Below, piece by piece: positions 11,373 to 36,050 of a stretch of 38,759 bases of DNA. Position numbers and translations under genes: made by a program. The stretch lies in the IMG/VR virus record IMGVR_UViG_3300038956_000256, positions 1 through 38,759 of that record; one strand, given 5' to 3'. Within the stretch, counting starts at the first letter, position 1; each line of letters starts with the position of its first letter. The notes beneath the pieces were generated by a model. The model made no database searches, had not been told where the DNA came from, and saw nothing but the letters and a program-made list of their open reading frames with translations. The DNA comes from a virus.

Positions 11373-13268
11373 TTAAAAAACGATTTTTAAGAGTTGGTAT
11401 AAAGCAAAGAGAGTCAGGCAGATTTTAAGGATCACAATAATATTCTCGAAGCTTAGGAGCCTCTGAGCTTTGTACTCATGTAGGAAATACTCTGACTCTG
11501 TTGGGATCTCCTCGTATATCGTATATGCTCTGATCTTTAGTTTATCCTGTTCGAATTCTCCTTCAATATACAAGCCGTCTCCGAAGTGGTCGAGATCTCC
11601 GTCCCAATAATTGACCTCTGTTATGTTTGTGTGAATTATACCGTTATCCCCTCTTATGCGTTCTCCGATCTCTAAAACATTCTTTACCGTCTTCCCGTTA
11701 TATTCATACTCTACCCTCTGCAGGCCCTCCGGAACCGAGGGGTAAGGTGCGACCGTGGTATAATTTTTAATTCCTATGTGTTGATCTATTCGGAAATTTA
11801 CTTTATCAGGTCGAGGAAGGACCGCCGGAGCTGGTACCCGCTTCGCCTCGAAGACTTCCTTAGTAGTCTTTAGCTTTTTAACCTTCTCCCCTTTTGAGTT
11901 TTTGCTGCTTACGGTATAGTGCATTGTTACGGTCATTTTCGCGTATGCTTCCCCGTTTTCGATCCCTTTCTCGATCTGCTTTTCTATCCCGTTGACCCCA
12001 GCATTAAAGAAAGTATTGGCTGGTGAAGGCATGGCGATCGCTTTAACGAGTACGCTTTCGTTATCCGGGATGTAAGGCACGCCGTTTTTATAAACGACGT
12101 CGGCGAAGCCTGCGATAGTTATACCTCCTCTTATCTTCCCTTTGTCCCTTTCCTCTACTGGTATTTTGATACTATCCTCGGTTTGGTTATATCTTGCATT
12201 ATCGACGAAATCGATGTTAAGGATCTCAAGAAGACCCCCAAAGACTTTTTCCGTCATTTCGACACTCGGCTGGTTCTCGAAGGATATGTCGCCGACTGGA
12301 ATACCCATAGTTATTAGTTCTTCAGCATTGACAAACTTGTTATCATGTATATACACGTTTTCCCCGCCATGGTACCAAATAGCACGGAGCCCAGGATCAG
12401 AGAAAACGTTGTTAAAAACTTCAATATTTTTTGTTTTGAATGGTTTATTTCTTGCATCGTACCCGTGTGAGACTCCCGCGTTCCCGATCTGCAATCCGTT
12501 GTGCCCGCCCTTATACGCTCCGTAACTGTCCCCTGTGTATGCGAAAAAAATGTTATCGTGTATTTTGCAGTTCTGACAGTTATCGAGCCTGGCGCAGTCG
12601 CTTGTTATACCAGCAATCTTATTTTTATATATTGTACCATTTAGCACACAGGAAAAGAAAATACCTTCATGCTGGCAGTTTGATATGAAATTATTATAAC
12701 ATGCGACTCCCTTAGAAAATCTAATATAAATTCCGTCGCTAAAGGCATTATACAGCTTCATATCATGTATTTTGATATTGCTTCCAAAATTGCTTTGCCA
12801 ACCGCCGAACAAAATAAGTTTTTCGCAGTCGTGTCGCGTGTCGCTTCTTGAATTCGCGTAACTTCGAGGTAGGTTTCCAATGTTGCCGTCAATTTGGAAA
12901 CCTGATATTTCGACATTATGCACAGACTCCCTAGGGTTGCATATTACCCCGATCTGGCCCGTGAACCATTGCGAAGAAGTGGGTGCTACCCTTATAATCG
13001 CGTTTGGGTCTCCGGTAAGATGAATATTTGATTTTATAATTACTGGACCATCTACGAGATAGACACCAGGGTTAAGATAGACAGTACCGCCGCCGTTCTC
13101 GCTTGCTTCTTCAATCGCTTTGTTGATAACGTCCTGGTCGTTTGTAGCTCCCGTCGGGCTTACGATGTAATCACCTGCAGCCGACGCAGTCCCTGTAAAA
13201 AACCCTGAAAAAAATAAAGACGACAAATATAAGAATAAAATAAATGTTTCCCGGAGACTCATAAACAT
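11373..13268 (-). CDS. Secreted, C-terminally anchored right-handed beta-helix protein (disaggregatase/pectate-lyase-like)
   Basis: Signal peptide; DQDVINKAI...TVYLNPGVY start; parallel beta-helix repeats (IHDMKLYNAFSDGIYI, NNFISNCQHEGIFF); C-terminal TM helix. Confidence 0.75.
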   Translation of the reverse strand: MFMSLRETFILFLYLSSLFFSGFFTGTASAAGDYIVSPTGATNDQDVINKAIEEASENGGGTVYLNPGVYLVDGPVIIKSNIHLTGDPNAIIRVAPTSSQWFTGQIGVICNPRESVHNVEISGFQIDGNIGNLPRSYANSRSDTRHDCEKLILFGGWQSNFGSNIKIHDMKLYNAFSDGIYIRFSKGVACYNNFISNCQHEGIFFSCVLNGTIYKNKIAGITSDCARLDNCQNCKIHDNIFFAYTGDSYGAYKGGHNGLQIGNAGVSHGYDARNKPFKTKNIEVFNNVFSDPGLRAIWYHGGENVYIHDNKFVNAEELITMGIPVGDISFENQPSVEMTEKVFGGLLEILNIDFVDNARYNQTEDSIKIPVEERDKGKIRGGITIAGFADVVYKNGVPYIPDNESVLVKAIAMPSPANTFFNAGVNGIEKQIEKGIENGEAYAKMTVTMHYTVSSKNSKGEKVKKLKTTKEVFEAKRVPAPAVLPRPDKVNFRIDQHIGIKNYTTVAPYPSVPEGLQRVEYEYNGKTVKNVLEIGERIRGDNGIIHTNITEVNYWDGDLDHFGDGLYIEGEFEQDKLKIRAYTIYEEIPTESEYFLHEYKAQRLLSFENIIVILKICLTLFALYQLLKIVF

Positions 13269-13290
13269 TTAGACGTCGGAAAGTTATTTA

Positions 13291-13322
13291 AATTTAGTGT
13301 TGTTTAAATATATCATTAAAAT
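13291..13322. promoter_or_regulatory. Second copy of the 11261 operator, in a divergent promoter
   Basis: AATTTAGTGTT-gtttaaatat-ATCATTAAAAT, same 11+10+11 geometry, also preceded by TCGGAA. Confidence 0.65.
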
Positions 13323-13339
13323 GTGGAGGTTCAAATCTC

Positions 13340-13699
13340 TTGAATAGATACATAAAAGCGTTATTGGTTGCGGCCCTCCTTATTTCCCTGGTAGGTGCTG
13401 CGAGTGAAAAGACTGAAACCGGACAGAGTGCAGAGAAGATAAATTATACTGTTAAAAATCCGGTCCGTGATACTGTCGAGATAGTCCAGGATGAGGAGAA
13501 GCTTAAACAGGCCATAAAGGACAAGGTGAAAGAGAAAGCTAATAATATAAGCGTGCCTCGGGAAAGCGGGCAGATTATAAACGCTCGGGCTGCCTGCACT
13601 CAGCTAGTAGATAAGGCGAAGGACTACAGCAGCTCAGGGATAGGAATACCCAAGGGGGCAAATAACAGCACCCAGAAAAATAATACGAGCTCAAAATAG
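13340..13699 (+). CDS. Secreted hypothetical protein
   Basis: Signal peptide MNRYIKALLVAALLISLVGAA; GGAGGT RBS, TTG start. Confidence 0.7.
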   Translation: MNRYIKALLVAALLISLVGAASEKTETGQSAEKINYTVKNPVRDTVEIVQDEEKLKQAIKDKVKEKANNISVPRESGQIINARAACTQLVDKAKDYSSSGIGIPKGANNSTQKNNTSSK

Positions 13700-13797
13700 T
13701 AACGAAATGATGGAATTAAAAAAGTTTACTGGAACTTAATTAATATGACAATTTCCGAGAATGGAGAGATACTTTTTTAACTCTTATTTTCTTTTTG

Positions 13798-13915
13798 AAA
13801 TGACAACCTTTTATTATAAAATGTTGTCTTTTTGCCTTTTCAGATCCCTAAAAAATACCCGAAATGTAGAGGTTTAACCTCGAAAAGACAACCTTTTAAT
13901 ATAATGTTGTCTTTT
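13798..13915. repeat. Two direct copies of a palindromic site upstream of the recombinase gene
   Basis: GACAAC-cttttattataaaat-GTTGTC (13802-13828) and AAAAGACAAC-cttttaatataat-GTTGTCTTTT (13883-13915). Confidence 0.8.
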
Positions 13916-13939
13916 AATATGTATGGAGGTTATGAGGTG

Positions 13940-14563
13940 ATGCGGTCCTTTACATCTTACCGAGAAGAAGAGAGAGAAGCGAGAAGCGGAGCTATGGAAA
14001 ACGGGCTCATTACTGCGGACGGCACGAAGGTCTTAACCGTCGAAGAGTTTGATAAGTTCCTGCAGGCTGTCCCGGAAAAAAAACGGGTAATCTTTGAGCT
14101 AAACACTATTACAGGGCTGCGTTATATTGAACTTCAGCGACTCTATGATAACCCGGAATGGTACTATAAAAGCAGAAATCAGATTATCTTGCCAGCAGCA
14201 GCTCAGAAAAAGGTTAAACAGAAACTCCCAAAAAGGACAGTGGATAGGCTGCCATCTACATTTCATTATATGTTTAAGGATTTTATTGAAGGTCCTAAAC
14301 CGCCAGAACGGATATCATGGTATAGAAGCCTAGAAAGGTGGTCAAAATGGGCAGGGATTAAGCCTAAAGTTGGGCCTAAGACACCGAGGAAAACGATTGA
14401 GAGCTGGATGTTAAAAGCCGGAATCCCTGAAATAGAAATATATTCCAGACAAGGGCATGATCCGGTTACATCTTTAAGGCATTATCAGAGTTTATCGTTT
14501 ACTGATTACGAAATGAGAGACATAAGAAAAAGGCTTACCGAATGGGGAATACTCGGAGGTTAA
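13940..14563 (+). CDS. Tyrosine recombinase (DNA breaking-rejoining fold), essentially catalytic domain only
   Basis: TGLRY (R), KTPRKT (K-x-x-R in place of H-x-x-R), QGHD and RHY catalytic residues; GGAGGT/GAGGTG RBS favours ATG 13940 over the 13832 ORF start. Confidence 0.85.
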   Translation: MRSFTSYREEEREARSGAMENGLITADGTKVLTVEEFDKFLQAVPEKKRVIFELNTITGLRYIELQRLYDNPEWYYKSRNQIILPAAAQKKVKQKLPKRTVDRLPSTFHYMFKDFIEGPKPPERISWYRSLERWSKWAGIKPKVGPKTPRKTIESWMLKAGIPEIEIYSRQGHDPVTSLRHYQSLSFTDYEMRDIRKRLTEWGILGG

Positions 14564-14628
14564 GCCGGATGAGGATAAAAAAGAAATTTCCCCCGCGTAA
14601 ATTAGAAAACGTTAACAGGTGAGACATA

Positions 14629-14883
14629 ATGAGTAAAATTGAAGTTAAATATAAGACCAGATCCTCCGGGCTCGTTGTTATGCCTAAAGAGTCAATGGAA
14701 GAGGCAGAGAACCTAGTTAAATATTTAAAGCAGCTCTCGGGCTTTGAGGTGCTCGGGATCTTTATAAATGATAAGCTCGTCGAGGGATCTAAGCCCGAGA
14801 AAAAAGAAGAGTGGAAGAAACAGAAAAGAACCGCCAGCCTGGACGAGTATAAAATAGAGTTTCCAAAATGGTGCTATCAATGA
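14629..14883 (+). CDS. Hypothetical protein
   Basis: 84-aa ORF with AGGTGA RBS. Confidence 0.7.
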   Translation: MSKIEVKYKTRSSGLVVMPKESMEEAENLVKYLKQLSGFEVLGIFINDKLVEGSKPEKKEEWKKQKRTASLDEYKIEFPKWCYQ

Positions 14884-15029: not shown

Positions 15030-15096
15030 TTTCCACCATTTCTTTTTTTCTTCCTCTTTGTTTTCTCCTGGTGCTGTTTTTGGGGAAATCGACCCT

Positions 15097-15981
15097 TTAG
15101 TTTTCGATTCCCAGCTTTAGTTTAAGGAGCCTTTTCTCGATGTCTTCCTGCAGAATAAATTTATCGATTGTATATTTTTCTTTAAACTTCGAGATATCTG
15201 CCAGGCCTTTTATAATAACATCCGGGTCGAGCTCGGTGTCCTGGTCCCTGAGCTTTGAGAAATCCCGGTTTTCGTAGACTAAAGCCTGGTCTATCTCCCT
15301 GGTTATCGGAATAGGCCACATACTAGACCTACAATGAAAATGTAGAGGGGGCCGGTATTGGCCGGAGCTCTCAGAGTCAGTATAAAATATTGTGCCGTGT
15401 AGCATCTGACATTGAATAGTTGTTTTCTCGTCGAGCTTTGCCCGGAATTCCCAGGCCCTTATTTTATGCTGTCTGTATCTGTGAAGGGTTGAGTTATTAG
15501 CGACGTCCGCAGAAAACGTCCTGGCGAATCTTACGGCCCTGTATTTTTCCCCGTCCCATAGTTCCATAATTCTTTTTGCTAGCTGGTTGGGGTGCTCCTG
15601 ATAAATCCCTTCTTCTTTCAATAATATGACAATAGACTCGACTATCTGCTCGGCGAGTTCTACTGACAGCCTGACTAGCTCCTCAGTAAGAGGTAAGACC
15701 TCGGAAGCTGCAGACATATATGAACGGCTGAGTTTTGCCCGTGTAGCTGCCGAGGCTTCGCCGGTTATCTGTTTATCTGCGTAGTCGACGGCTAGGAGGA
15801 CTAGGTCGTCGAGTATCTTGTCGAGCTGTACCCGAAAGGTAGCACTCCTAAACTGATTCTTAACCTTTGCAAGGAGAGCCGGAGCTGCTGCACCCTTAAA
15901 GCCCTTCTTAATTGTCCTATCAAAAAGAGAAACATACCGAGATTCTAGTTTATATATCTCGGGGGAGTGGAGCAGGTTCAT
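15097..15981 (-). CDS. SPP1 gp7/Mu gpF-like head morphogenesis protein
   Basis: RAVRFARTFS...WEFRAKLDEKTTIQCQMLHG...YRPPLHFHCRS motif. Confidence 0.85.
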   Translation of the reverse strand: MNLLHSPEIYKLESRYVSLFDRTIKKGFKGAAAPALLAKVKNQFRSATFRVQLDKILDDLVLLAVDYADKQITGEASAATRAKLSRSYMSAASEVLPLTEELVRLSVELAEQIVESIVILLKEEGIYQEHPNQLAKRIMELWDGEKYRAVRFARTFSADVANNSTLHRYRQHKIRAWEFRAKLDEKTTIQCQMLHGTIFYTDSESSGQYRPPLHFHCRSSMWPIPITREIDQALVYENRDFSKLRDQDTELDPDVIIKGLADISKFKEKYTIDKFILQEDIEKRLLKLKLGIEN

Positions 15982-15985
15982 GGTT

Positions 15986-16960
15986 TTAAGTTTGTATTGT
16001 TACCGTGCCCTCGATTCTGAGTTTTATATAAACCTTTTCTGCTTCTGATGTTCCATTCGACCCCGCTTCGAAAACCGTGATGTATGCCGTTTTCGTTTCA
16101 GTATCGGTTGAAACGGCATTGGTCGCTGTCAGTGTGACTGTGTAAGTGCCAGGAGAAGTGTATCGATGTGTAGGATTTTGCTCTGTTGAAGTTGTTCCAT
16201 CTCCAAAATTCCAGAGCCACGATCTTGGTAACCCTGTCGAAGTGTCTGAAAATGAGAATACCGTATCAGTTGTCCCGCTTCTGACAGGTGCGATGAAATT
16301 CGCATCTATCCGCATGCTGTCGTATTCGAAATTTGAGAATTTTATGGTTATGGGGTTGCCACTCGCTGGACCTTCTCCCTGCGCGAGAACTCCAAAAAAC
16401 ATGCAGATGTACGCGCTTGTATGCGGAATATCGTCTCCTGTATAGTTCCAGTCGAGGATTGTAGTACCATCCGAGGCAACTACTGAATAGTAAACATAGT
16501 CGGGAGTCCATTCTATTGTGTAGACTACCCCGCTATCGTTTATATAGGGGTTGGTGCTCAGGCAACCATAGTAAATATTTTCAGGGTGCGAGTCGATGCT
16601 TGCAGGATGGCAGGAAAACCAGATTCTCTCGTCATACCCAGGCCACTGATTGATTTCAATATCTAGCTCGTTGGGTATGTCTGTGTTGGGATCGTCATAG
16701 TAGGTGTAGAGACCCAGGCACGCGTTTCTCTCGATGTTTAAGGTAGGGGAGCTTGCCGTCCACCTTATACGCCCGTATTTGTAAGGGGTCGGGGTCTCGA
16801 AAAGTACACCTTTGTAGATGCCATCGAACTTCTGCATTCGCAGATTGAGGTCTCCGTTATCGTCTACCCATGCATTCGAGCGATCTACCCTATCTCCCTG
16901 ACACCAAACCCATGAAATACCTTTCCAGGGTAGCCTGTCGTTTTCTATGTACGTTACCAT
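15986..16960 (-). CDS. GH16-like glycoside hydrolase fused to a PKD domain
   Basis: ELDIE (E-x-D-x-E catalytic motif), YTIEWTPDYV; PKD core SWLWNFGDGTTSTEQNPTHRYTSPGTYTVTLT. Confidence 0.8.
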   Translation of the reverse strand: MVTYIENDRLPWKGISWVWCQGDRVDRSNAWVDDNGDLNLRMQKFDGIYKGVLFETPTPYKYGRIRWTASSPTLNIERNACLGLYTYYDDPNTDIPNELDIEINQWPGYDERIWFSCHPASIDSHPENIYYGCLSTNPYINDSGVVYTIEWTPDYVYYSVVASDGTTILDWNYTGDDIPHTSAYICMFFGVLAQGEGPASGNPITIKFSNFEYDSMRIDANFIAPVRSGTTDTVFSFSDTSTGLPRSWLWNFGDGTTSTEQNPTHRYTSPGTYTVTLTATNAVSTDTETKTAYITVFEAGSNGTSEAEKVYIKLRIEGTVTIQT

Positions 16961-16970
16961 GATATCCTCC

Positions 16971-17357
16971 TTATATCAGTTCAACCTCGCCCTCGAAATC
17001 AATACCTACGGTCTGATTCAATTCTTTAATCATCGCCCTCAATATATTCTTGTCTTCAAGATCATTCGCTCGCTTCTGAGCCTGTACTTTTGCAACTTCA
17101 AGTGCCTGATCCTTGAGAGATGTAATTAGTGCCCGCCGTTCTGCTTCTGTTTCAGGAAGATTGTAAGGTATTGCGACAGGTACGGGAAACTCAGGATAGA
17201 GTGGGAGAGGTTTCCCGTTCTGTCCAATTTTATCTGTCAGAATTATATTCCCATCTGGATCTCTCACGGGGTTACCTCGATCTTCCCACGTGATTATTAT
17301 GTTGCGTCCTGTGTCTGGGGCATATGCTCTGAGTCGTCTGAGTTTGATTGTTGCCAT
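16971..17357 (-). CDS. Hypothetical protein in the head module
   Basis: 128-aa ORF, tightly packed in the operon. Confidence 0.7.
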   Translation of the reverse strand: MATIKLRRLRAYAPDTGRNIIITWEDRGNPVRDPDGNIILTDKIGQNGKPLPLYPEFPVPVAIPYNLPETEAERRALITSLKDQALEVAKVQAQKRANDLEDKNILRAMIKELNQTVGIDFEGEVELI

Positions 17358-17358
17358 G

Positions 17359-19536
17359 TTATATCACCATTCCGTAAGACTGTAAGAATTTTGTTATTGA
17401 GCCTTCTATAGATGCCTCTAGGCAATCTGGAATATTATTAGAATCACTATCAAGTGCAGGATTACTATGCGTCACTCGCCCGTGATACAACTGCCCGTTT
17501 CCGGGGAATAATTTCAATTCGTGAATAGTCCCGCTTTCGTCTTTTTTGAATTCGAGTTGTTTAGGGCGGTATGTGTGCAGGAAAAAATCAATTTCTGTTT
17601 TAGCGGGATCATATAGAGCTATCCAGGGTTTTGAGAGGTTTTGTAAGCCGTATGAGGCGTTTGTGGAGTCTGCGAAAACGTATGTTGTGCTGCCCATGTT
17701 GTGAATAGTGGGAGCGTATCTCAGAGTAGGCACTGCTGAAAAAATAGAACCAATCGAAACGGTATGATCAAAATACACGAATTCACGGAGGGTACAATTT
17801 GAATATCCAAGCACCGAAGACGAACCTTGATACGCGCCCAATTTTATTGGGTTCGCGGAATCACCCGCCCATGTACGCGGTGTAGAAAGTGTGTATTGTG
17901 TATCATTGAGATTTACAACTATGTTGTTAGTGCCCGGTTTGCCATCCCAACTCATTTGGAATATATATTCAGTATTGATTGAAAGGACATCAGTAATTGA
18001 TAGACGTGTGACGACTGTCCCATCTGAAATCCATATCTCTATATTACGATTTGATCTGAGATAAATAAATAATCCTCTAGCTCCCGTGTAAGCTGCACCC
18101 GTATCAAAAAGAGACTGATCTATCAATGTTGCACCAGTTTTAAATTTTATGCCAATCGCAAACCCATTTTCAACTGCTATTTTTTTTGTTGTTGAAATGT
18201 ATCCAGTTGATCCGTCAAACCTAAACCCACCATCAAGCTTTACAACGCCACCTACTATAGTTCCAGTATTATTATTCCCGCTCAAATCAGGGACAATATT
18301 TCCGACCGTATCAGTATAATTTATAACTAATTTTAATCGAACTTTATTAAAATTCGTCCGTTCGTTGTCACTCGGAGGCAGGTCTACTTTCAATCCGATT
18401 CTCTTATCAGTCCCTAAATTATTACTATAAGTAATACTCCCCGAAGAACCGTTTACCTTAGCTGCTGCTGATCCCTTGGGGAAAACTGCTCTACCTAATC
18501 CAGTTCCGTAGACATCATCAAGTTTTGTACCGTCCAAAAACGTGCAGTTTGCGCTTGTTTGTGATACCTGAGAATAAGCACCGTCTAAAGAATGTGTAGA
18601 ACAGAGTTGATATGCTGTGCCGTCGTGTGTATAGAGTTGTAGGGATGTCTTGGCGAGGTTGTCAGGGGTTTGAATTTCCAGTGTTGTTTGGCGGGCTACA
18701 TCTGCCTGAATATCATCAAGATAAAACGTAATATCTGATTCGTCTTTTTGGTCTGTGCCTATATATAGCGTAACATCGTTTGACCAGTCGATTGTACCGG
18801 AAACGGTTGACGGGTAAAGCCCCTCAGTTCCAGCAGGAGCGTGTATCGGCAAGACAAAGCTAGTTACAGTATTTGCAGGTATTGGGAATCTAGTGCCTCG
18901 AAATTCGACTCTATTCTCGCCTTGTGCAATCGAAACAAATAAATTTTTAGTCGTATTACACTCGATTTTAAATGTTAGGAACTGTTTACCAGCGAGTGAA
19001 ACGGTTTTAATTATTTTGAACCCTACTGATATCGTGCCTCTACCTACTGCTTTTATTCTGCCGTTTTCAGTAGTAAGAGATGTTAACGCACCCGTGCCTG
19101 CGCTCCATCCTTCAATGGTAGTACCGTCACTAATAACAGTAGGATTATTACTCACTGAAGTATTCGCAACAACAAACTCTTCAGTAATACTATGATTTGT
19201 AGTATCCACACTCAACAAATTTAGCTCTTTCAGCTTCCCCGCCGATAACGTTTTTGAAGAATTCTGACCGTTGACATCATGTAAATATACCCCGTCGCCT
19301 TCGATGATATTGACAGTCCCTACACAATAATCAGGAGAGCCAGACCCTTTCAGACCGCCGAATGGAGATTCAGCGATTGTTAAACGGTTGCTGTTGAGAG
19401 TATATTCATTATTTAGAGGGAGGATGTCAGGATTTCCAGAGGGGAGAACTAAGACTTTGCCCTCTGTCTCGATTGTGATAGACTCCCCCTGGGGATCTAT
19501 TCGCTTGAAGGGGGCCGAAGGGGTACGTAGTTTCAC
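17359..19536 (-). CDS. Virion fibre/adhesin with a LamG/ConA-like domain
   Basis: 725 aa, S/T/G-rich beta protein; VPDLSGNNNTGTIVGG...FRFDGSTGYI LamG signature. Confidence 0.7.
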   Translation of the reverse strand: MKLRTPSAPFKRIDPQGESITIETEGKVLVLPSGNPDILPLNNEYTLNSNRLTIAESPFGGLKGSGSPDYCVGTVNIIEGDGVYLHDVNGQNSSKTLSAGKLKELNLLSVDTTNHSITEEFVVANTSVSNNPTVISDGTTIEGWSAGTGALTSLTTENGRIKAVGRGTISVGFKIIKTVSLAGKQFLTFKIECNTTKNLFVSIAQGENRVEFRGTRFPIPANTVTSFVLPIHAPAGTEGLYPSTVSGTIDWSNDVTLYIGTDQKDESDITFYLDDIQADVARQTTLEIQTPDNLAKTSLQLYTHDGTAYQLCSTHSLDGAYSQVSQTSANCTFLDGTKLDDVYGTGLGRAVFPKGSAAAKVNGSSGSITYSNNLGTDKRIGLKVDLPPSDNERTNFNKVRLKLVINYTDTVGNIVPDLSGNNNTGTIVGGVVKLDGGFRFDGSTGYISTTKKIAVENGFAIGIKFKTGATLIDQSLFDTGAAYTGARGLFIYLRSNRNIEIWISDGTVVTRLSITDVLSINTEYIFQMSWDGKPGTNNIVVNLNDTQYTLSTPRTWAGDSANPIKLGAYQGSSSVLGYSNCTLREFVYFDHTVSIGSIFSAVPTLRYAPTIHNMGSTTYVFADSTNASYGLQNLSKPWIALYDPAKTEIDFFLHTYRPKQLEFKKDESGTIHELKLFPGNGQLYHGRVTHSNPALDSDSNNIPDCLEASIEGSITKFLQSYGMVI

Positions 19537-19537
19537 T

Positions 19538-19867
19538 TTAAGCCCTCTGTGATATTATAACGCTGTATTTTGTCGCGTTTGTGGTGTCATGGTTAGTAGC
19601 CTTAAAGATGAGGTAAGCCGGTACTATATCGACGGGGATCTGAGCGACCCTTAAAGCTGTGCTTAAAGTAACTGGCTGCAGGGGAGCGTTATTAACCCCG
19701 TCAGGGGATGAGCCTACATTTACCGTTAAATTGGTGCTGTCTCCCTCGTTTACCACATAGATAATTATCTGGTTTAAGGTGTCTTCCAGTTTCACGACTA
19801 CCGGATCGTTGGTAGCCCCTGCGCTTACTGCTGCGCTGCTTATTACTTTCACACTGTTAAAGCTCAT
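19538..19867 (-). CDS. Small beta-sandwich virion protein (possible spike or fibre base)
   Basis: 109 aa of alternating beta pattern (LTVNVGSSPDG); immediately upstream of the fibre gene. Confidence 0.5.
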   Translation of the reverse strand: MSFNSVKVISSAAVSAGATNDPVVVKLEDTLNQIIIYVVNEGDSTNLTVNVGSSPDGVNNAPLQPVTLSTALRVAQIPVDIVPAYLIFKATNHDTTNATKYSVIISQRA

Positions 19868-19880
19868 TTAAACCACTTTT

Positions 19881-20477
19881 TTATTCTGGTATAACTGTCC
19901 CTATGCCCTGCATAAGCTGGGCCCGGACTGCGTCTTCTAGTGTTGCCTTTGTGTTATAGAAGGCTGAGATAAGCCGGTCCCTGCACTCGTCGAGCCCTGA
20001 GTTTTTATTCCACTTTACCTTTACCCTTTTAGCCTGTGATCTGTCCTGATCCTTCCCTATCACGGAGGCAGTAACCTCGAAGATCTCCGGGGTTATGGCC
20101 TGTACCTCGATAGAATCTGCGATAATAATTTCGTCCTTGTTAACTCCGACTTTCACGATCTTCTCGTACTTCGACGGATCGCCTGAGAAGATTACCTCCG
20201 GGATAGTTACGTGGCTCATGCCGTAAAGAACCAGCTCACGGTAAGCAATTTTTTCAGCTTCCTTCCTGAAATAATCGATAGCTTCCTCTTTTGCCAGGGT
20301 CAGAGCCTTGTTTAGACCCTGCATCGTTTGCTCTTCCGGAATGACAATAAAATCTTTTTGCGGGTTGCTGCCGTCTGCGTAGGTATTAGCAGTATCCTTT
20401 AAGACAATATGGATAGCTCCCTCGTCGTCCACAGTATAGGCTGGAGTGTTTGCAGGTACTATATTAATAGTTACCAT
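19881..20477 (-). CDS. Hypothetical protein downstream of the portal
   Basis: 198-aa ORF, GAGGT RBS. Confidence 0.7.
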   Translation of the reverse strand: MVTINIVPANTPAYTVDDEGAIHIVLKDTANTYADGSNPQKDFIVIPEEQTMQGLNKALTLAKEEAIDYFRKEAEKIAYRELVLYGMSHVTIPEVIFSGDPSKYEKIVKVGVNKDEIIIADSIEVQAITPEIFEVTASVIGKDQDRSQAKRVKVKWNKNSGLDECRDRLISAFYNTKATLEDAVRAQLMQGIGTVIPE

Positions 20478-20511: not shown

Positions 20512-21750
20512 TTATTCTTCAGCTTCTTCCCCGTTCACTAGATAGAAACCGCTCCATTTTCGGAACTCGTCGCGCTCTATAACTCCCGTATTATACATTT
20601 CCTGGACCTCTGAGGCTGTGAGCTTGACCTTTGAGAGCTCCTCGAATTTTATTTCGATCGAGTCCTCGGGCTTCCCTTTAGATACGAGCCAACGGTTAAC
20701 GAAATCCTGGGTAATATTCTCTGTGATCTTCTGCAGGCCCTCCAGGACGACGAGCCGGTCTTCTTCTACCAGATAGCCGCTCGCGTAGGTTGTCCCGCTA
20801 GCCTTTCCCATGGTTAGGGGGGTCTGGAATAACCCGAGCTGGATTTCGGTTTCTAGCGACTCCTTAAAGCCCATGACGTCTAGGCTGCCTTTTGCGTCGA
20901 TCGGAATAACCTTTAAACCGATTGCAGAGATGTCCTCGTTTTCTGAGAGGTTTTTATTATCTTCGAGCCATTCGTCGTGAAGCTTCCCGGCGTCCTCCGG
21001 GGTTATTATTTCAGCTTCGACGAGCTTTTCGAGCATAACATGATCGTAATGATAACGCCCCATGCCATAGCGTTTCACAAAAGAGACATACCCCTTATTG
21101 ATATTCAGCAAATTTCTTATACTGAGCTCTAGGGGATCGAGTAAGCTGGACCCATAGAGCCCGATTGTTTCACGCTGCTTAATGTCTTCCTGCACGTAGT
21201 CCCAGGGGTTTAAGTTCCCGATTACTAACTCGGAAGGGTCGAAGGTCTTCTGAGATGTAGAGCCCTCGTTTATTACTACAGTGGCGATAGGTGCCTGCAT
21301 CACATCGGTAGGTCTGTCGTTTGGTTTTACTCCTTCCGGTAGGACTGTTGTATAAGGCATTAATAAAGGGTATAGCGTGAAATGGGTTTCATCCCCGGCA
21401 GGCTTTCCGATGATTATGCCGTCTCGACATAGTAACCGCCCGATCGTGGCGACCTGCTCGTTAAGGTTTGCTTTCTTCCTCCAGGTCTCAAACTCTTTAA
21501 TTAGGGTTTTTTTCTTGCTGTCTGCGCTCATCCCCTTAGACAGCATAAGGCCAAGTTTGTTAAGAGGGACTGAGACATAAGGGGAAGCCGTGCTGAGCTG
21601 CTGATAATATCTGAAACGGTTATTAGTGTCAAAATTTGGAATACCGCCTATCGTGCTGGTTTTGTCGTCCCGCTTTGTTACATTAAGGGAGGCACCCAGC
21701 CGGATTTTAGAGCCTGCGGTCTTTGCTGCGGTTGTCGTTTTAGAAACCAT
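20512..21750 (-). CDS. Portal protein
   Basis: 412 aa, helical; GSSLLDPL...LLNI clip region; C-terminal IEIKFEELS...MYNTGVIERDEFRKW; located downstream of the terminase. Confidence 0.75.
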   Translation of the reverse strand: MVSKTTTAAKTAGSKIRLGASLNVTKRDDKTSTIGGIPNFDTNNRFRYYQQLSTASPYVSVPLNKLGLMLSKGMSADSKKKTLIKEFETWRKKANLNEQVATIGRLLCRDGIIIGKPAGDETHFTLYPLLMPYTTVLPEGVKPNDRPTDVMQAPIATVVINEGSTSQKTFDPSELVIGNLNPWDYVQEDIKQRETIGLYGSSLLDPLELSIRNLLNINKGYVSFVKRYGMGRYHYDHVMLEKLVEAEIITPEDAGKLHDEWLEDNKNLSENEDISAIGLKVIPIDAKGSLDVMGFKESLETEIQLGLFQTPLTMGKASGTTYASGYLVEEDRLVVLEGLQKITENITQDFVNRWLVSKGKPEDSIEIKFEELSKVKLTASEVQEMYNTGVIERDEFRKWSGFYLVNGEEAEE

Positions 21751-24651: not shown

Positions 24652-26754
24652 TTATTTTACTAATTTTAAGGTGCTCTGCGTCGGGCTCATTATATCGCCT
24701 TTCTGCTTCATCTTCTTAATTAAACCCTCAGGGTCTTTTATGCCAGCCTCCAGGCTCATTTCGATGACTCTGTCGAGCTTTGCTTCCTGATTGACTATAT
24801 CGGCTTTAGAGAGCCTCTCTATAATTTCCCTGATCTTCTTTATGTTTGACCTCTGACTCCCTGACGTCCCAGCCTCGATAATAGTCGCGTCAAGCTCTCC
24901 GGTATCCGGGTCGATTCCTACCTGGCTTAAATTGTCCATTAGGAGCTTGCAGGCAGCGACCGCATCTTTTAGGTCCACGGTAGAGGATAACCTCATTCTT
25001 GCGTGAGCTGTTGCGAGCCTTCGGGCTGCATGTAGAGCTCTAACCGTCACGGGTACGGAGTCCTTTATCTTGCTGCTTGCGTTCCTGGTTGACACGTAGA
25101 ATTTTGCTATGTAGTCCCTAGCCTCTGGCGTCATTACCGGGAAGCAGTGTGTTTTCGCATAAGCTATGTATTTCCTGAGCAATTCAAGATCTATTAAACC
25201 CGGCCCGTTTCCGTCGGTCCTCTCGTCCAGAACGTATAAGGCCAGCTTCTCGTCGAAGGTCTGGTCTGGCACGTCACGGATAACATAAAGTAAATCCATT
25301 CTGGAGAGGAGAGCGTCCCCTAGATTAAATTGAGTTGCTATACTTTCGTATTGATCATACCGCCCATACTTTGGATTTGCAGCTCCAAGGAAAGCGCATT
25401 GAGTCGGCAAGTGTGCAAAGACTCCAGCTTTAGCGATGTCGACGCATTGCTGTTCTAAAGCTCCGTGGATCATAGACCTATCATTTTCTTTCATTTTATC
25501 GACTTCGTCAACGCAGCAGATACCTCCCTCGAAGTCCTCGGACCCGCTTACCATAGTGAGGGCCCCGGCTTCAATCGCCCATCTACCATCGAAATCGTCA
25601 TGTACCGCCGCGCCAGTCAACCCGGCACCGCTCGCAGACTGCCCGGAAACCATTATCGCCCGTGGTGCGAAATCGGCAACAAATTTTAGAATCTGGCTTT
25701 TTGCGATACCTGGGTCGCCTACTAATAGAATATGAATGTCCCCGCGCTGCCACGTCCCGTCGTTAAGCCGCCGCCCGGTCCCTGAAAATAGCTGTAAAGC
25801 GACTCCCTGCTTAACGTTTTCCATCCCGAAGATGGAAGGAGCGATAGAGTTATAAATTATTTTGTCGATGTTCGGCTTCTTCGAAAGCTCGAGGATCTGC
25901 TTTTCCTCCTCCTGGCTTATCGGGATGTTCTCGAAATCCCTGGTACTTTTCATTATCGAGTTAGCCACCAGGATAAAATCTAGAAACCTTGTTTTTTTTC
26001 CGTCTTTCTTTACCCTCGGGCGTCCCTGCAGGACTCCGACGATTACGACTTTATCGCCAGGCTTGCAGGCACCGGCAAGTTCCTCGCTGCAGGCAACGTA
26101 TAGAAACTCGGGTTGTCTGCCTCTGAGCGTGTCTAGTGGTTCCTGGATCTTTAGGATCTGATAGTCGATATATTCGCTTTCATCCTCTTTGATCTTGAAA
26201 GGCCCTTTCTTTCCGCAGGTGTCGTTATCGCAGCCCGCGAAAGGTTCCTGCAGGGCGTCTGTCTCTTCGCTCTGCTCTACTATTGTAACATGTCCGCAGC
26301 GTAGACACTGAAAAGCCGTTTTAGTCCTGACTGGTCTTATCTCCGTGGCTTTAGAGACCACACCGAGGACCGATATCAGCTTATTAAGGTGTTCTTTCCT
26401 GAGCCTGCTTATAGGTATCTGCCATGCGTCAGGCATGGAAGTTATACGGACTTCAATATCTGGCAGGTCTGTAGTCGGAAAAGACATACTAGCGATTGCC
26501 TCTTTAGCTGCGCTAAAAAACGTGTTCGGGTTATTTATTAGATACTCCGCAAGGTCTAAGTCGTAATTTTCGACATGTCTATACTCTACGTATAAGCTTT
26601 TAGTTTCCGGGTACTCATAGCATAATTTCAAAAGTTCTTCCCAGTAGTTACCGGGGACTCTTTTCTCACCAGGTTTCGCGAAGTTGAAAACCTGATCTTT
26701 ACTAAAAAATCTAGGGAGGGTAACCTCCGCTAGGGTTTTAAAATTATATTCCAT
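24652..26754 (-). CDS. mcm: MCM replicative helicase
   Basis: Zinc finger CLRC...CDNDTC, Walker A GDPGIAKSQ, Walker B CVDEVDKM, AANPKYGRY, arginine finger SRMD, TVRAL. Confidence 0.97.
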   Translation of the reverse strand: MEYNFKTLAEVTLPRFFSKDQVFNFAKPGEKRVPGNYWEELLKLCYEYPETKSLYVEYRHVENYDLDLAEYLINNPNTFFSAAKEAIASMSFPTTDLPDIEVRITSMPDAWQIPISRLRKEHLNKLISVLGVVSKATEIRPVRTKTAFQCLRCGHVTIVEQSEETDALQEPFAGCDNDTCGKKGPFKIKEDESEYIDYQILKIQEPLDTLRGRQPEFLYVACSEELAGACKPGDKVVIVGVLQGRPRVKKDGKKTRFLDFILVANSIMKSTRDFENIPISQEEEKQILELSKKPNIDKIIYNSIAPSIFGMENVKQGVALQLFSGTGRRLNDGTWQRGDIHILLVGDPGIAKSQILKFVADFAPRAIMVSGQSASGAGLTGAAVHDDFDGRWAIEAGALTMVSGSEDFEGGICCVDEVDKMKENDRSMIHGALEQQCVDIAKAGVFAHLPTQCAFLGAANPKYGRYDQYESIATQFNLGDALLSRMDLLYVIRDVPDQTFDEKLALYVLDERTDGNGPGLIDLELLRKYIAYAKTHCFPVMTPEARDYIAKFYVSTRNASSKIKDSVPVTVRALHAARRLATAHARMRLSSTVDLKDAVAACKLLMDNLSQVGIDPDTGELDATIIEAGTSGSQRSNIKKIREIIERLSKADIVNQEAKLDRVIEMSLEAGIKDPEGLIKKMKQKGDIMSPTQSTLKLVK

Positions 26755-30569: not shown

Positions 30570-30890
30570 TTAATCTTTTACTGCGTCCAGGACCATTTTT
30601 CCGAGCTCATGGAGCTCTGCCTCTGTATAACCTCCTGCTTTGAGCTCTGCGCCTCTCTTAAGGATCTTCCCAGCCTCATATATTGAAACGTTACCAAGAG
30701 ACTTATATACCTCAGCTTCCAGGCTCTTATAATCACTTATGAGTTTAGCGTTTTCGCATTCAAGCTTTTTGAGCTTATCCTCCAGATCTGCAGGCAGGAC
30801 TTTAAAGCCCTTTGTTTTTAAGAATCCATACAGCGCCAGGATGACGGTAAAACCGCCACCGAGCAACCCATCTAGGAAAGATATTTCCAT
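30570..30890 (-). CDS. Membrane-anchored coiled-coil protein (lysis accessory or holin-like candidate)
   Basis: One N-terminal TM helix and a coiled coil; last gene of the putative lysis operon. Confidence 0.6.
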   Translation of the reverse strand: MEISFLDGLLGGGFTVILALYGFLKTKGFKVLPADLEDKLKKLECENAKLISDYKSLEAEVYKSLGNVSIYEAGKILKRGAELKAGGYTEAELHELGKMVLDAVKD

Positions 30891-30896: not shown

Positions 30897-31115
30897 TCAC
30901 TTCCTGGTTAAACATTCTTTTATATCCGATACCTTTAAGCCCGCTATCAATCCGATTATAAAAGCAACCGGAAGGAGTAAAGTACCATCCTGCCCGGTTA
31001 CTATGAGCTGATACTCCATCGAAGCAATGGCATAGATAGCCCCTAACCTGACGATCTTTTCGACGATCTGGACCGCGTCTTCTGATAATTCTGGTAATGT
31101 TAAACCTAGCCTCAT
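30897..31115 (-). CDS. Small two-TM membrane protein, holin candidate
   Basis: 72 aa, two hydrophobic helices, basic C-terminus; GAGG RBS. Confidence 0.5.
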   Translation of the reverse strand: MRLGLTLPELSEDAVQIVEKIVRLGAIYAIASMEYQLIVTGQDGTLLLPVAFIIGLIAGLKVSDIKECLTRK

Positions 31116-31159: not shown

Positions 31160-31714
31160 TTAGCCCATAACCTGACGATCTTTCTTAACGTAAATTTCGA
31201 TTTCTTGAACTGTATTTTTAATTTTATTTTTTATGTTCTCCGCGTCTGTCTCCGAAGCGCAGGGGATAACGAGATAAGCTATAATTTCCGGGTCTCCTGG
31301 GTCTTCTGGCTCCTCCGGGTCTTCGACTGTTTCCATAGAGTAAGTATAAGAAACGTAACGAATCCTAGTTCTTATCTTAGTGTCCGAGGTCGTAAGGTAC
31401 CACCTTAAAACGATACTCTCCCCAGCTTCCGCCTCGAAGTCTACCGCCTTTTTTTGCTCCTCATATTGGAGCTTAGTACCTTCGAAAACTGCGATAGTCG
31501 TTTCCTCTCCTTCTCCAGCCTGGGCCGTTACCGTAGCCGTACAAATTGCCCCGGCTCCGTCTACTGCAATAAAAAGTGAGAGCTCCTCTAATTTTATTTT
31601 CTTCCCGGTCTCGCCTTTGATTGTTTCGGTTTTTTGTAAGCAGTTTCTTTTCACTTTGTCGCATTTTACATATATAGTTGAGTAAACGCGGTTAGTGTCC
31701 GTTATTGTGGGCAT
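31160..31714 (-). CDS. Beta-rich protein with an acidic Pro-linker and small C-terminal domain
   Basis: EDPEEPEDPGDPE linker; co-transcribed with the 31718 beta-helix gene. Confidence 0.7.
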   Translation of the reverse strand: MPTITDTNRVYSTIYVKCDKVKRNCLQKTETIKGETGKKIKLEELSLFIAVDGAGAICTATVTAQAGEGEETTIAVFEGTKLQYEEQKKAVDFEAEAGESIVLRWYLTTSDTKIRTRIRYVSYTYSMETVEDPEEPEDPGDPEIIAYLVIPCASETDAENIKNKIKNTVQEIEIYVKKDRQVMG

Positions 31715-31717
31715 GCT

Positions 31718-33179: not shown

Positions 33180-33584
33180 TTAAGCTTTGACAGTTCGGAC
33201 CAGGAAAGAAACTGTGTTCGGTCGAAGTACATACATTTTATTTACTGCTTCGACGATCTCGTACTCCTTCGCGCCTAATGCCTTCATTTCCTTAATTTTT
33301 TCAATCACTTTTGAAGGGACTGTATAATAAGCGCTTACGTCCTTTCTGTGCCCCTGGACATCTCCTTCTATGAGCTCGACCTTTTTGTCTTTCAGGAGCA
33401 GAGTAACCGTCTCGGCTATCGTGTCATAATAGCTTTTCGGTATCTGGATCGCTTCAAGCTTAGGGCACATATCAAGGATATGATGTACATCTTTATAATT
33501 CGGTCTAAAGGCACAATGGACAATACGCTCGTCTGCGCTGAGTTCGCCTATCTCTTCTTTCGTGCTTATTACTCGTATTTGCAT
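33180..33584 (-). CDS. DUF1699 family protein
   Basis: MQIRVISTKEEI...ERIVHCAFRP...CPKLEAIQIPKSY...LIEGDVQGHRKD signature. Confidence 0.9.
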   Translation of the reverse strand: MQIRVISTKEEIGELSADERIVHCAFRPNYKDVHHILDMCPKLEAIQIPKSYYDTIAETVTLLLKDKKVELIEGDVQGHRKDVSAYYTVPSKVIEKIKEMKALGAKEYEIVEAVNKMYVLRPNTVSFLVRTVKA

Positions 33585-33830
33585 TTAGTATCTCATCTCT
33601 ACAAGTCTTTTTTCAATCGGGGGAAAACTCAATTTTTTATTATGTGATTATTATCTTTTTTAACTATAAAAATATTTTCAATAATGGGCAACTTCTTCAT
33701 TTAATTGGTTGGGTTTCGGAGCAATTAAGGGCTAATCCCCGCCATTTCAATGGTGGGATACAGCCCGTCAACTTCCTAACATAATAGCGTTAAATTAATA
33801 TACACATGGTTACCATATGTATATACTAGC

Positions 33831-34244
33831 ATGGTAGGAAAAGAACATTGGATAAGTGCAAGAGGTTGTGTATATAACACAAATTACCATTTCGTATGGT
33901 CTACAAAATATAGAAGAAAAGTCCTTACTGGAAAAATAGCTGAAGACTTGAAAGAGCTTCACGAAAAGATAGCAAAAGAAAAAGGTGTAACTCTTGTCAC
34001 TCAAGAAGTAATGCCTGATCATGTGCATCTTTTTATAATCATGCATCCAAAGTTTGCACCTGCTGATATTGTGAAAATATTCAAAGGAATTACTGCAAAG
34101 AAACTCTTTGAAATACACCCGGAAATCAGAAGTAGATTATGGAATGGGCATCTCTGGAATCCTTCTTATTTTGTTGGAACTTGTGGAGATACAACAAAAG
34201 AAACTGTAAAAATGTATATTGAAACTCAAAAGGTGAAATTGTGA
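33831..34244 (+). CDS. tnpA: IS200/IS605 Y1 HUH transposase
   Basis: YHFVWSTKYRRKVL, MPDHVHLF (HUH), LWNPSYFVGT, MYIETQ (catalytic Tyr). Confidence 0.97.
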   Translation: MVGKEHWISARGCVYNTNYHFVWSTKYRRKVLTGKIAEDLKELHEKIAKEKGVTLVTQEVMPDHVHLFIIMHPKFAPADIVKIFKGITAKKLFEIHPEIRSRLWNGHLWNPSYFVGTCGDTTKETVKMYIETQKVKL

Positions 34245-34390
34245 CTAGATTAGTATGCCGTAGATGTGCCTCTGATATTCTGAATTGGAACGGGGTACAT
34301 TGTCCGTTTTGTGGTAGAAAGTTGGAAAGAATTGATAATGAGGATTATTGGGATAAAATTGGAAAGGTGAAGCAGAGTGTCAGAAATTAA
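34241..34390 (+). CDS. 49-aa zinc-ribbon protein translationally coupled to tnpA (not in the ORF track)
   Basis: AGGTGA RBS, GTGA overlap; MTRLVCRRCASDILNWNGVHCPFCGRKLERIDNEDYW. Confidence 0.7.
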   Translation: MTRLVCRRCASDILNWNGVHCPFCGRKLERIDNEDYWDKIGKVKQSVRN

Positions 34391-34562
34391 TACTTCTGAA
34401 ATTTAATTATTCAATATTTTATTCATTTTAGTAAACATAAATTTTATTCTAAGGCTTTTAGAGCGCATTTCTCGACTAGTCTAAGGCGTTTATACCTGTT
34501 AGCATGAGATCGTTTGATGAGCACGGCGAAAAGTGCCTCTAATCCTACCAGAAAAGGGTCTT

Positions 34563-36050
34563 TTATTTCCCTACTACTCCCCAGTATTGGCCCTTTTTGT
34601 CGTGGACCGCGATAATATGATCGCCGGGTTTAGCGTTCTGTGCAAGCTTAAGCAGGTAATACTTTCTTGAGTGTGCAGGATAAATTAAGCACCGCTCGCC
34701 GACCTCGGGCTTTTTGAAAGGATATAAAATATATTTGTACTTCCCTCCCTCAGAAGGCAGGACCAGGCCCCAGTCTCCAGGCTGCACCCCTTCCGACTCG
34801 GTTGGTTCCAGCTGGTCGATTACGCTGGGAGCTGCTGCATACATCCCCATACGGCTGTATACCCGGATAGCATCAGTATATACGATATTCCCATAGTAAT
34901 CCCCGCTAGCATTGCCATCGAGACCGTTTCCAGTTGCCAGGATCGTCGTATTATACCCGCTCGGGCATACCATCCCGTAACCCGTCCAGGCAGGTTTCGA
35001 GCTATTAAGGGTAATTTTTGTGCCTGTGATTACGTTATCCTTTACATATAGTGTAGTTGGAGCCCCCGCAGAAGTATATACGAGAAATCCGGCGTTATAG
35101 CAATTTTCTATAATGTTCCTTTCAAATGTTGCACCATTCCAGCCGCCGATCGCGATACCTGCGTTATAATTAATTGTAGTAATCCTTCCGCAGCCTCTTA
35201 TAATGTTATCGTGTACGTATAAACCCTTATTTGATTGATTTGAGCCTGTACCATACTCGATTATCCACATCCCTTCCCCCCAGGCGTTAACTATCTCGTT
35301 ACCGTAGACCTCAATATTTGACATATCATACGTATCATCGCTGTGCTCGATTTGTATGCCAGGATTCCCAGCCAGGGAATTTAAAGCGTAAGGCTCCATG
35401 TAATTATTAAAAATCTTGCCATGCCCAGTATTATAAATTCGGTGTGCGCTGTTGGTTCTTATTTTTGTTACATTCCCGAAAATCATAAAGTTTGAGGACC
35501 TTAGAAAGAAACAACCATCGTGACCCATACGCTCTACTCTGTTATTAAAAAAGTATAGATTGTTGCTATTTGACATCCTCATGCCGTCGCTTTGCCCATC
35601 GTGTAGATACATGTCGTGCATAGAAATATTTGTGGCATTCGTGAAAAACATTATAATGTAATTTAGTTTTCCGTGGACGTATCCGGGTTGGTTGTCCTTG
35701 TTTGCGTCAATTTCGAAGTTATGTACCTCGACGTTTCGGATAGGGTTTACTCTCTGTTTAATAAGCGGCTCTGTGCCAGGGTCTTCCGTTGTGTAGATGT
35801 TCGCCCAGCCTGCGTTATTTTTCAGCCTGAGTTTTGCGGTTGGGTCGCCTGTAAGGATTGTATTGTTTCCTACTAGCAGCCATGAAGAAAGCTCATAAGT
35901 AAAAGGCCCTCGAAGATAAACCGTCACCGGGCTGGTATCTGTCCCGTTATTTGCCGCAAATTCGAGAGCCTGGTTAATTTCGATGTCGTCGGCTGTTCCG
36001 TCTACGGTGTATTCATCAGTTCCCAGGCTCGAAACGTAAACCGTAGTCAT
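34563..36050 (-). CDS. Disaggregatase-like beta-helix protein, candidate tailspike/depolymerase
   Basis: TVYV...DGTADDIEINQALEF...VYLRGPFTY...MHDMYLHDGQSDG...MGHDG...RTNSAHRI...AGNPGIQIE; coupled to the tail gene. Confidence 0.8.
   Translation of the reverse strand: MTTVYVSSLGTDEYTVDGTADDIEINQALEFAANNGTDTSPVTVYLRGPFTYELSSWLLVGNNTILTGDPTAKLRLKNNAGWANIYTTEDPGTEPLIKQRVNPIRNVEVHNFEIDANKDNQPGYVHGKLNYIIMFFTNATNISMHDMYLHDGQSDGMRMSNSNNLYFFNNRVERMGHDGCFFLRSSNFMIFGNVTKIRTNSAHRIYNTGHGKIFNNYMEPYALNSLAGNPGIQIEHSDDTYDMSNIEVYGNEIVNAWGEGMWIIEYGTGSNQSNKGLYVHDNIIRGCGRITTINYNAGIAIGGWNGATFERNIIENCYNAGFLVYTSAGAPTTLYVKDNVITGTKITLNSSKPAWTGYGMVCPSGYNTTILATGNGLDGNASGDYYGNIVYTDAIRVYSRMGMYAAAPSVIDQLEPTESEGVQPGDWGLVLPSEGGKYKYILYPFKKPEVGERCLIYPAHSRKYYLLKLAQNAKPGDHIIAVHDKKGQYWGVVGK

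Follow-up and report, generated by a model that had tools for sequence, protein, structure and literature searches.

The window examined here is the whole 38,759-nucleotide stretch of IMGVR_UViG_3300038956_000256, a linear virus record of IMG/VR with a CheckV completeness of 59%. By its gene content it is part of the genome of a siphovirus-type (head-tail) archaeal virus whose host is probably Methanosarcina, and it carries three beta-helix genes related to the disaggregatase family of that genus (P1, P2 and P3) as well as a separate GH16 candidate. A preliminary description of the stretch had claimed three beta-helix open reading frames (ORFs) and one GH16-PKD ORF, and all four were found in place:

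P1, 11373-13268, minus strand: 631 aa, with a predicted signal peptide, a beta-helix at about residues 30-330, a stalk of unassigned fold at about 330-600 and a C-terminal anchor.
P2, 31718-32977, minus strand: 419 aa, consists of a disaggregatase-family beta-helix alone and opens a small operon.
P3, 34563-36050, minus strand: 495 aa, a beta-helix at residues 1-393 followed by a C-terminal region of about 100 aa of unassigned fold.
GH16 candidate, 15986-16960, minus strand: 324 aa, a GH16-like beta-jelly-roll at residues 1-215, then a PKD domain (E 1.6e-19), lying between the portal and MuF genes.

The window was compared with four related contigs from IMG/VR or from metagenome-assembled genomes (MAGs), namely G001 (49.9 kb), G002 (53.8 kb), G003 (51.0 kb) and G006:C111 (60.4 kb). 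It was found that P1, P2 and P3 are all kept in the five contigs, each in the same genomic place, and the three placements that had been proposed (beside the VirB4 genes, in a candidate exit block and in the tail module) are therefore real and persist across diverged viruses. That the window might be a chimeric contig, joining a virus to a separate element, was ruled out by the same gene order in five independent contigs.

All three ORFs match right-handed beta-helix Pfam models. The claim that their domains are related to one another was borne out by BLASTP, with 25% identity between P2 and P3 (E 9e-27), 28% between P1 and P3 (E 3e-20) and 20% between P1 and P2 (E 2e-9), and judged by these alignments the three share a true but old homology. 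The profile search which the preliminary description had called for was positive for two of the three, P2 scoring 67 bits and P3 62.5 bits against PF08480 (Disaggr_assoc; cut-off 22.6). As a cellular comparator we used a 695-aa protein from a Methanosarcina MAG, which carries PF08480 and PF06848 and is itself uncharacterised. This protein aligned with P3 at 36% identity over 392 aa (E 1e-67), with P2 at 29% over 319 aa (E 8e-33) and with P1 at 29% over 284 aa (E 4e-22); therefore none of the viral proteins is closer to its viral siblings than to the cellular family. Homologues were present in all 59 Methanosarcina species genomes, with 2-22 copies in each and 35-41% identity over P3 residues 3-393. 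In a Methanosarcina MAG the cellular members scored 213-263 bits against PF08480, and the genes on the virus contig of the same MAG 57-70 bits. The identity of 29-36% to cellular members and the PF08480 matches ruled out the possibility, raised beforehand, that the domains are generic NosD/CASH scaffolds unrelated to Dag, and at the sequence level P1, P2 and P3 are true relatives of the Methanosarcina disaggregatase family.

In a maximum-likelihood tree the cellular, P1, P2 and P3 sequences formed four separate clades, with SH-like approximate likelihood-ratio test (SH-aLRT) values of 88-100, and P1 and P3 appeared as sister clades (SH-aLRT 95), the only such pairing among the viral three. The tree has in effect no root and therefore does not point to a donor. 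The term "paralogues" used in the preliminary description holds only in a loose sense: the proteins are homologous, but the distances among their clades are as great as those to the host family, and P1 and P3 alone group together. In a protein-cluster look-up all members were nameless or annotated as "hypothetical protein". The fold family also reaches beyond Methanosarcina, because candidate-phyla-radiation bacteria carry homologues: two Patescibacteria/Paceibacterota MAG contigs (L032 and L033) encode proteins of 736-821 aa with 26-33% identity to the P3 beta-helix.

The AlphaFold2 (AF2) model of P3 is a right-handed beta-helix with a predicted local distance difference test (pLDDT) score above 90 for residues 1-393, falling below 50 for residues 395-495. 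The nearest structures to this model in Foldseek were the A-modules of the alginate C5-epimerases AlgE4 and AlgE6, followed by phage tailspikes (HK620, the CBA120 tailspike protein TSP3 and phi29 gp12, at E 1e-7 to 2e-6) and GH28 polygalacturonases, and the family profile also finds AlgE4 by sequence (E 3.5e-6). Viral and cellular members agree without exception at five residues, in P3 numbering H177, R204, N251, W262 and N282, and nearly without exception at D155. The distances from D155 to H177 (22 residues) and from H177 to R204 (27 residues) correspond to about one helix coil, a spacing which would be expected if these residues line one groove. In a profile alignment the GDG and GHD motifs of the family fall on the same coils as the YGFDPHE loop of AlgE4, although not residue for residue, and no mechanistic conclusion was drawn from it. 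No useful match came from sequence searches of the PDB, for which P3, the VirB4-like protein and the GH16-like domain were used. The one characterised disaggregatase, from M. mazei and the namesake of the family, cleaves methanochondroitin (PMC12369344). Since the nearest folds act on uronic-acid polymers, the model comparison would fit the chemistry of methanochondroitin (PMC12369344), which may be taken as the putative substrate.

P3 is the candidate for a place in the virion. It had been described as coupled to the tail genes, and this proved correct both from its overlap with the gene upstream and from its position in the tail module of the relatives.

Large DUF2341 tail protein, 36047-38758, minus strand: PF10102 match (E 4e-20), downstream of the tape measure gene.

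The start ATG of P3 (36050-36048) overlaps the stop TGA of this gene (36049-36047) in the form ATGA. The 5' end of the DUF2341 gene is cut by the window edge, leaving 903 aa open as against 1235-1236 aa in the relatives. The order there is major tail protein, tape measure protein (TMP), three small genes, DUF2341 protein and P3, so that P3 is the most distal gene of the tail operon in each of the five genomes, and its orthologues in the four relatives are 79-87% identical in the same position. No hydrophobic segment was seen in its hydropathy profile. The best evidence that proteins of the P3 type are tail components is a fusion: in L010 (IMG/VR contig 3300014206_000045), at 10001-14815, a P3-type domain with 61% identity forms the N-terminus of a 1604-aa protein which starts 3 nt after the tape-measure gene; behind it come a YQBQ-like gene and a fibre-like gene with Mtd_N+DUF2341. 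Over its other 1200 residues the fusion protein had no Pfam match, and a tblastn search with P3 against 50,697 phage records gave none. We consider that P3 is probably a tail depolymerase, which would be made together with the tail-tip proteins, be borne on the virion and cut through the matrix to the S-layer.

P2 is followed by small genes with membrane segments, and the four genes form the candidate exit block.

184-aa acidic protein, 31160-31714, minus strand: 3 nt downstream of P2, with no Pfam match.
72-aa protein, 30897-31115, minus strand: two segments of weak hydrophobicity; its likeness to holins is limited to size and position.
106-aa protein, 30570-30890, minus strand: hydrophobic near the N-terminus, with a region resembling a coiled coil (weak bZIP match).

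P2 itself has neither a hydrophobic segment nor an export signal by hydropathy, and its orthologues occur in all related contigs. All four genes of the block are kept in G002, where the accessory genes are 51-63% identical (51% for the 184-aa and 63% for the 72-aa protein). An equivalent block in G006:C111 consists of the enzyme followed by proteins of 140 aa, 130 aa and 87 aa, the last with two transmembrane (TM) segments, and its accessory genes showed no BLAST similarity to those of the window. In G001 and G003 a homologue of the 106-aa protein is found just before the portal gene. A block made of an enzyme, a partner and two small membrane proteins is compatible with a putative exit cassette, and that P2 is the exit enzyme seems to us possible, a little short of evenly balanced. 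In such a case P2 would be a soluble cytoplasmic protein, co-expressed with its partner and the two small membrane proteins, which would be freed at the end of infection and release virions from the aggregate.

The third gene, P1, is found next to a set of genes related to the VirB4 family.

128-aa protein, 10844-11230, minus strand: predicted signal peptide and two TM segments, a member of the VirB4 cassette.
316-aa polytopic protein, 9877-10827, minus strand: about five TM segments, in a VirB6-like position.
296-aa protein, 8973-9863, minus strand: one TM segment, its stop overlapping the VirB4 start.
VirB4-family ATPase, 879 aa, 6337-8976, minus strand: matches to NCBIfam VirB4 models and a weak match to PF19044.

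The cassette region (5301-13268) is placed between MuF/integrase and the capsid genes in the virus genome. Hydropathy of P1 revealed a hydrophobic N-terminus (residues 8-26) followed by ASAAG and a hydrophobic C-terminal helix (609-627); the signal-peptide and anchor calls, which rest on this hydropathy, agree with what had been described, as does the location beside VirB4 genes, for which the profile matches of the ATPase were NF045975 (4.5e-28), NF045971 (1.7e-25) and TIGR00929 (1e-15), all below the equivalog cut-offs. The neighbours of the ATPase matched no family in profile searches, none of which was aimed at a relaxase or a coupling protein. P1 also matched a tail-spike family in PHROGs (1.4e-19), and a search of the ESM Atlas with its stalk (330-605) returned sub-threshold leads only. 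The order of P1, a small signal-peptide protein with two TM segments, a protein with 5-6 TM segments, a protein with 1-2 TM segments and the VirB4 ATPase is shared by the window and G006:C111, and G001-G003 hold the same set with P1 adjacent and a slightly different order.

The cassette was also found in the chromosomes of the presumed host genus. VirB4 homologues are present in 9 of the 59 Methanosarcina genomes, being 41-46% identical in two of them, and homologues of the 316-aa polytopic protein (28-30% identical) and of the 296-aa protein lie beside VirB4 in Methanosarcina contigs; small genes with two TM segments equivalent to the 128-aa protein occur in G006:C111 and in the chromosomal cassettes. 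The cassette is present in each of the three chromosomal contigs whose length allows the neighbourhood to be seen: L066 (G052:C19), L068 (G048:C14) and L070 (G020:C6). Two of their beta-helix proteins pass PF08480 (80-91 bits) and have a C-terminal anchor. The C-terminal part of the proteins in G052:C19 and G020:C6 aligns with the P1 stalk, and the copy in G048:C14 aligns with most of the length of P1. This last P1-like gene (L068:6077-7738) is split into ORFs of 128 aa and 398 aa, either as a frameshifted pseudogene or through a sequencing error. No match to TerL, portal, major capsid protein (MCP) or TMP was detected within 20-40 kb of the chromosomal cassettes. Because these cassettes also carry an anchored beta-helix protein, P1 may be seen as the viral version of a constant subunit of the Methanosarcina VirB4 cassette. 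The constant pairing of VirB4 with a disaggregatase-like protein, in viruses and in chromosomes, points to an unstudied Methanosarcina transfer system, and in a full-text search no paper was found linking VirB4 with Methanosarcina elements. The view that P1 is the matrix enzyme of this cassette has, in our judgement, about as much for it as against it. P1 would then be exported and held by its C-terminal anchor on the surface of the infected or lysogenic cell, where it might be the component that clears the matrix for a five-gene transfer cassette of VirB4 type, a functional counterpart of wall hydrolases of the VirB1/CwlT type in bacterial type IV systems. The cassette may serve conjugation, which would agree with the mating role proposed beforehand, but DNA import as in Ced/Ted or secretion are candidates as well. 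A wider proposal appears improbable to us: that Methanosarcina has an undescribed VirB4-type DNA-transfer machine whose obligatory surface subunit is an anchored disaggregatase-like depolymerase, and that a lineage of tailed viruses captured it, so that their genomes might spread among neighbouring cells embedded in matrix in a conjugation-like manner as well as in virions while the same enzyme family serves entry and exit.

From homology, predicted fold, predicted topology and conserved synteny we infer catalysis, substrate, virion location and the timing of the roles, and we lean slightly towards the reading that three diverged members of the disaggregatase family, one per module, have been retained in the virus lineage over a long time, all of which would cleave methanochondroitin or a related surface glycan. 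Several observations weigh against this reading. P1 gave no match to PF08480 at E<=0.01, its Pfam matches being PF12708 (1.3e-14), PF13229 and NosD, and the PF06848 repeat was detected by Pfam in none of the three; this repeat is not universal in the family, because several cellular members are also without it. The link to disaggregatase is drawn through the Pfam family definition and uncharacterised cellular homologues and not through a direct alignment with the M. mazei enzyme. The Asp beside H177 in the GHD motif is replaced by Glu in P1 and by Ser in the P1 orthologues of G001 and G002. In P3 no virion-attachment domain could be recognised, and its last 100 residues were not modelled. Furthermore, the fold matches of P3 include PfbA, an adhesin of pneumococci, a reminder that beta-helix proteins can be adhesins. 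If P1-P3 were glycan-binding adhesins or receptor-binding proteins, with the helix only as a rigid scaffold, P3 would be a tail fibre and P1 a surface adhesin; this would agree with the PfbA match, with the fact that the disaggregatase family has no known catalytic residues, and with what we take to be the catalytic residues of AlgE4, which do not correspond one for one to the conserved residues here. Such an explanation is nevertheless very unlikely, as the His, Arg, Asp and Asn columns are invariant or nearly so at 20-36% identity, a pattern more in keeping with an active site than with a variable binding face, P2 would be an odd adhesin without anchor, attachment domain or export signal, and the nearest structures are mostly enzymes. 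It is also conceivable, although unlikely, that the proteins are enzymes for which methanochondroitin is not the substrate, and that they act on S-layer N-glycans, on another exopolysaccharide or on one glycan each. The great divergence of the three clades speaks for this, as do the up to 22 cellular copies per genome, which include species said to be without a thick matrix (PMC12369344) and suggest varied substrates, the S-layer as receptor of the Methanosarcina virus MetSV (PMC10791045), and the additional GH16-like protein, which suggests more than one glycan target; on the other hand, the characterised namesake of the family cleaves methanochondroitin (PMC12369344), and the closest solved folds act on uronic-acid polymers, of which methanochondroitin is one.

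The roles assigned to P2 and P1 are open to separate objections, which also count against the reading of one matrix enzyme per module. The preliminary description was right in stating that P2 has no signal peptide, but its term "holin-like" for the neighbouring genes is putative at best, as the small proteins match no holin family in Pfam or PHROGs. The block of P2 and membrane proteins is not found in two of the five contigs, G001 and G003. P2 might instead be a second virion-borne tail spike, with unrelated membrane proteins next to it, since more than one tailspike is common in phages, the tail module is a few kb or less away from P2, and in G001 and G003 the P2 orthologue does not have the small membrane proteins as neighbours. 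We regard this as rather unlikely, given that opposite-strand genes part P2 from the tail operon in G002, that P2 is a bare beta-helix without an extra attachment domain, and that the block of enzyme, partner and two membrane proteins recurs in three genomes, in one of them with dissimilar accessory genes. As for P1, the VirB4 ATPase is only 20-22% identical between the window and G001-G003, while P3 is 81-87% identical, suggesting module swapping, and the cassette might be a passenger with no part in the biology of the virus. In its full form this alternative holds that P1 and the VirB4 genes are a self-serving mobile module of no use to the virus, which would leave two viral steps and a hitch-hiker. 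That Methanosarcina chromosomes carry this cassette too, without virus genes detected in its vicinity, that it stands beside the integrase, and that its identity between related viruses is so much lower than that of the tail genes would all agree with it; it is not favoured, and to us somewhat improbable, as the cassette is present in all related virus contigs at the same place, even at about 42% TerL identity, which implies long retention.

The GH16 candidate would be a fourth, separate glycan-binding or glycan-cleaving protein, possibly on the head. Its description as a GH16-PKD enzyme with an intact ExDxE motif was upheld as regards the GH16-like predicted fold, the conserved motif and the PKD domain, but no match to PF00722 was obtained at E<=0.01, either for the protein or for its homologues, and the last motif residue is not strictly kept. 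The motif reads ELDIE (residues 98-102); E98 and D100 are invariant and E102 occurs in 10 of the 11 family members. For the N-terminal 215 residues no sequence model and no PDB sequence match was found. The AF2 model is all-beta with a mean pLDDT of 76, dropping to 58-66 around the motif, which lies on the predicted strand 97-104. The top 50 Foldseek matches were almost all GH16 proteins, including laminarinases and carrageenases, the best being 1mac (E 7e-9, TM-score 0.69 by target). Only about 10 homologues are known; some of these have signal peptides, whereas the candidate itself has none, and one is fused to the N-terminus of a P1-like beta-helix. That the GH16-like protein is an active enzyme is doubtful. 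Being among head genes and carrying an Ig-like PKD domain, it may be displayed on the capsid and bind or cleave glycans there, which is a guess made with low confidence. The region between portal and MuF is variable between relatives: in the window the gap (15986-20477, about 4.5 kb) holds genes of 198, 109, 725, 128 and 324 aa, in G002 portal and MuF lie close together, and in G001 a 1034-aa multi-PKD version follows the portal gene. The 725-aa protein (17359-19536) matched no family in Pfam, PHROGs or NCBIfam.

Further genes identified by profile matches were the following:

MCM helicase, 24652-26754, minus strand.
Large terminase (TerL), 22273-23694, minus strand.
Portal, 20512-21750, minus strand.
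MuF-like head protein, 15097-15981, minus strand.
Tyrosine integrase, 13832-14563, plus strand.
DUF1699 gene, 33180-33584, minus strand: PF08004, E 6e-44.
IS200-type (Y1) transposase, 33831-34244, plus strand.

From the window and the four relatives a composite circular order was obtained, which runs from MuF, integrase, P1 with the VirB4 cassette, scaffold and HK97-type capsid to the major tail protein, a 938-aa tape measure, three small genes, the 1236-aa DUF2341 protein and P3, and then through DUF1699, the P2 block, MCM, terminase and portal back to MuF. The segment from capsid to tape measure falls outside the window. The composite order indicates a siphovirus-type virus, and the CheckV completeness of the window and its relatives implies a genome length of about 66-72 kb. 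Four lines of evidence lead to Methanosarcina as the probable host: G006:C111 was binned with a Methanosarcina MAG, the window has a DUF1699 gene, Methanosarcina genomes contain homologues of the cassette genes, and the beta-helix family points to the genus as well. In every relative checked the DUF1699 gene is kept (46-62% identity), with the tail module on one side of it and the P2 block on the other. The transposase gene sits between P3 and DUF1699; as the site is empty in G001 and G002, it is probably a recent insertion in the virus genome. Divergence among the relatives is strongly uneven, with tail-tip genes 76-87% identical to those of the window, MCM and TerL 62-73% identical in G002 and undetected in G001 and G003, and VirB4 lower still, which points to extensive module exchange within the virus group. 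Against the phage collection TerL gave no match above 39% identity, and the DUF2341 protein gave one weak match, to a Methanomicrobiales virus.

The passage of archaeal viruses across the cell envelope, inwards and outwards, is largely unknown, and P1, P2 and P3 offer three expressible candidate matrix-cutting enzymes, for the surface, for exit and for entry, from a virus lineage whose host is an industrially and climatically important methanogen. Such enzymes could also serve to disperse Methanosarcina aggregates for genetics. Aggregated M. mazei cells resist the one well-studied Methanosarcina virus, MetSV (PMC12369344), and apart from a review on this protection by aggregates, a full-text search found no paper tying disaggregatase-type proteins to viruses. 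A 2024 review of entry and egress likewise mentions neither a viral enzyme acting on methanochondroitin nor any archaeal holin that has been proven (PMC10791045). Another metagenomic, predicted Methanosarcina virus, MetMV (PMC7164591), has a 67.8-kb record, close to the 66-72 kb expected here; no record close to the window appeared in the phage collection, and the likeness is one of host and length. The MetMV paper assigns few functions and does not mention disaggregatase (PMC7164591).

Compared with the cellular disaggregatase family, the viral proteins come from viruses of the same genus and share a homologous beta-helix over about 280-390 residues (29-36% identity) with motifs of the GDG, GHD and RTNSxxR type, but they form clades of their own, have lower PF08480 scores and are without PF06848. 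In contrast to the extracellular disaggregatase, P2 and P3 have no secretion signal, and P1 adds a stalk and a C-terminal anchor. Like the tailspikes of phages (P22, HK620, the CBA120 TSPs, phi29 gp12), P3 is a beta-helix protein encoded by a distal gene of the tail module with an ATGA overlap to a tail gene, and it would share with tailspike depolymerases the presumed role of cutting surface polysaccharide in order to reach the cell; it differs in that its host is archaeal, that no N-terminal particle-binding domain was seen and that it is apparently related to a family of the host. By analogy, P1 resembles VirB1, CwlT, PrgK and TcpG, being a putative matrix-degrading protein inside a VirB4 cluster with polytopic membrane proteins, with the presumed role of opening the envelope locally for the transfer apparatus, although its beta-helix is unrelated to the lytic transglycosylase or NlpC/P60 folds of those hydrolases and the likeness is one of analogy only. 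The pseudomurein endoisopeptidases PeiW, PeiP and PeiR of methanogen viruses are enzymes against a methanogen-specific wall polymer that serve release and have no known export route (PMC10791045), as is proposed for P2, whereas they are cysteine peptidases directed at another polymer in another host order and P2 is a glycanase- or lyase-like beta-helix protein. The GH16 family of lichenases, laminarinases and carrageenases, for its part, has fold members that are inactive, such as Rv0315, which is itself among the fold matches of the GH16 candidate. Taken together, the virus would present an archaeal version of known strategies, namely tailspike depolymerases, lysis enzymes and the wall hydrolases associated with type IV secretion systems.

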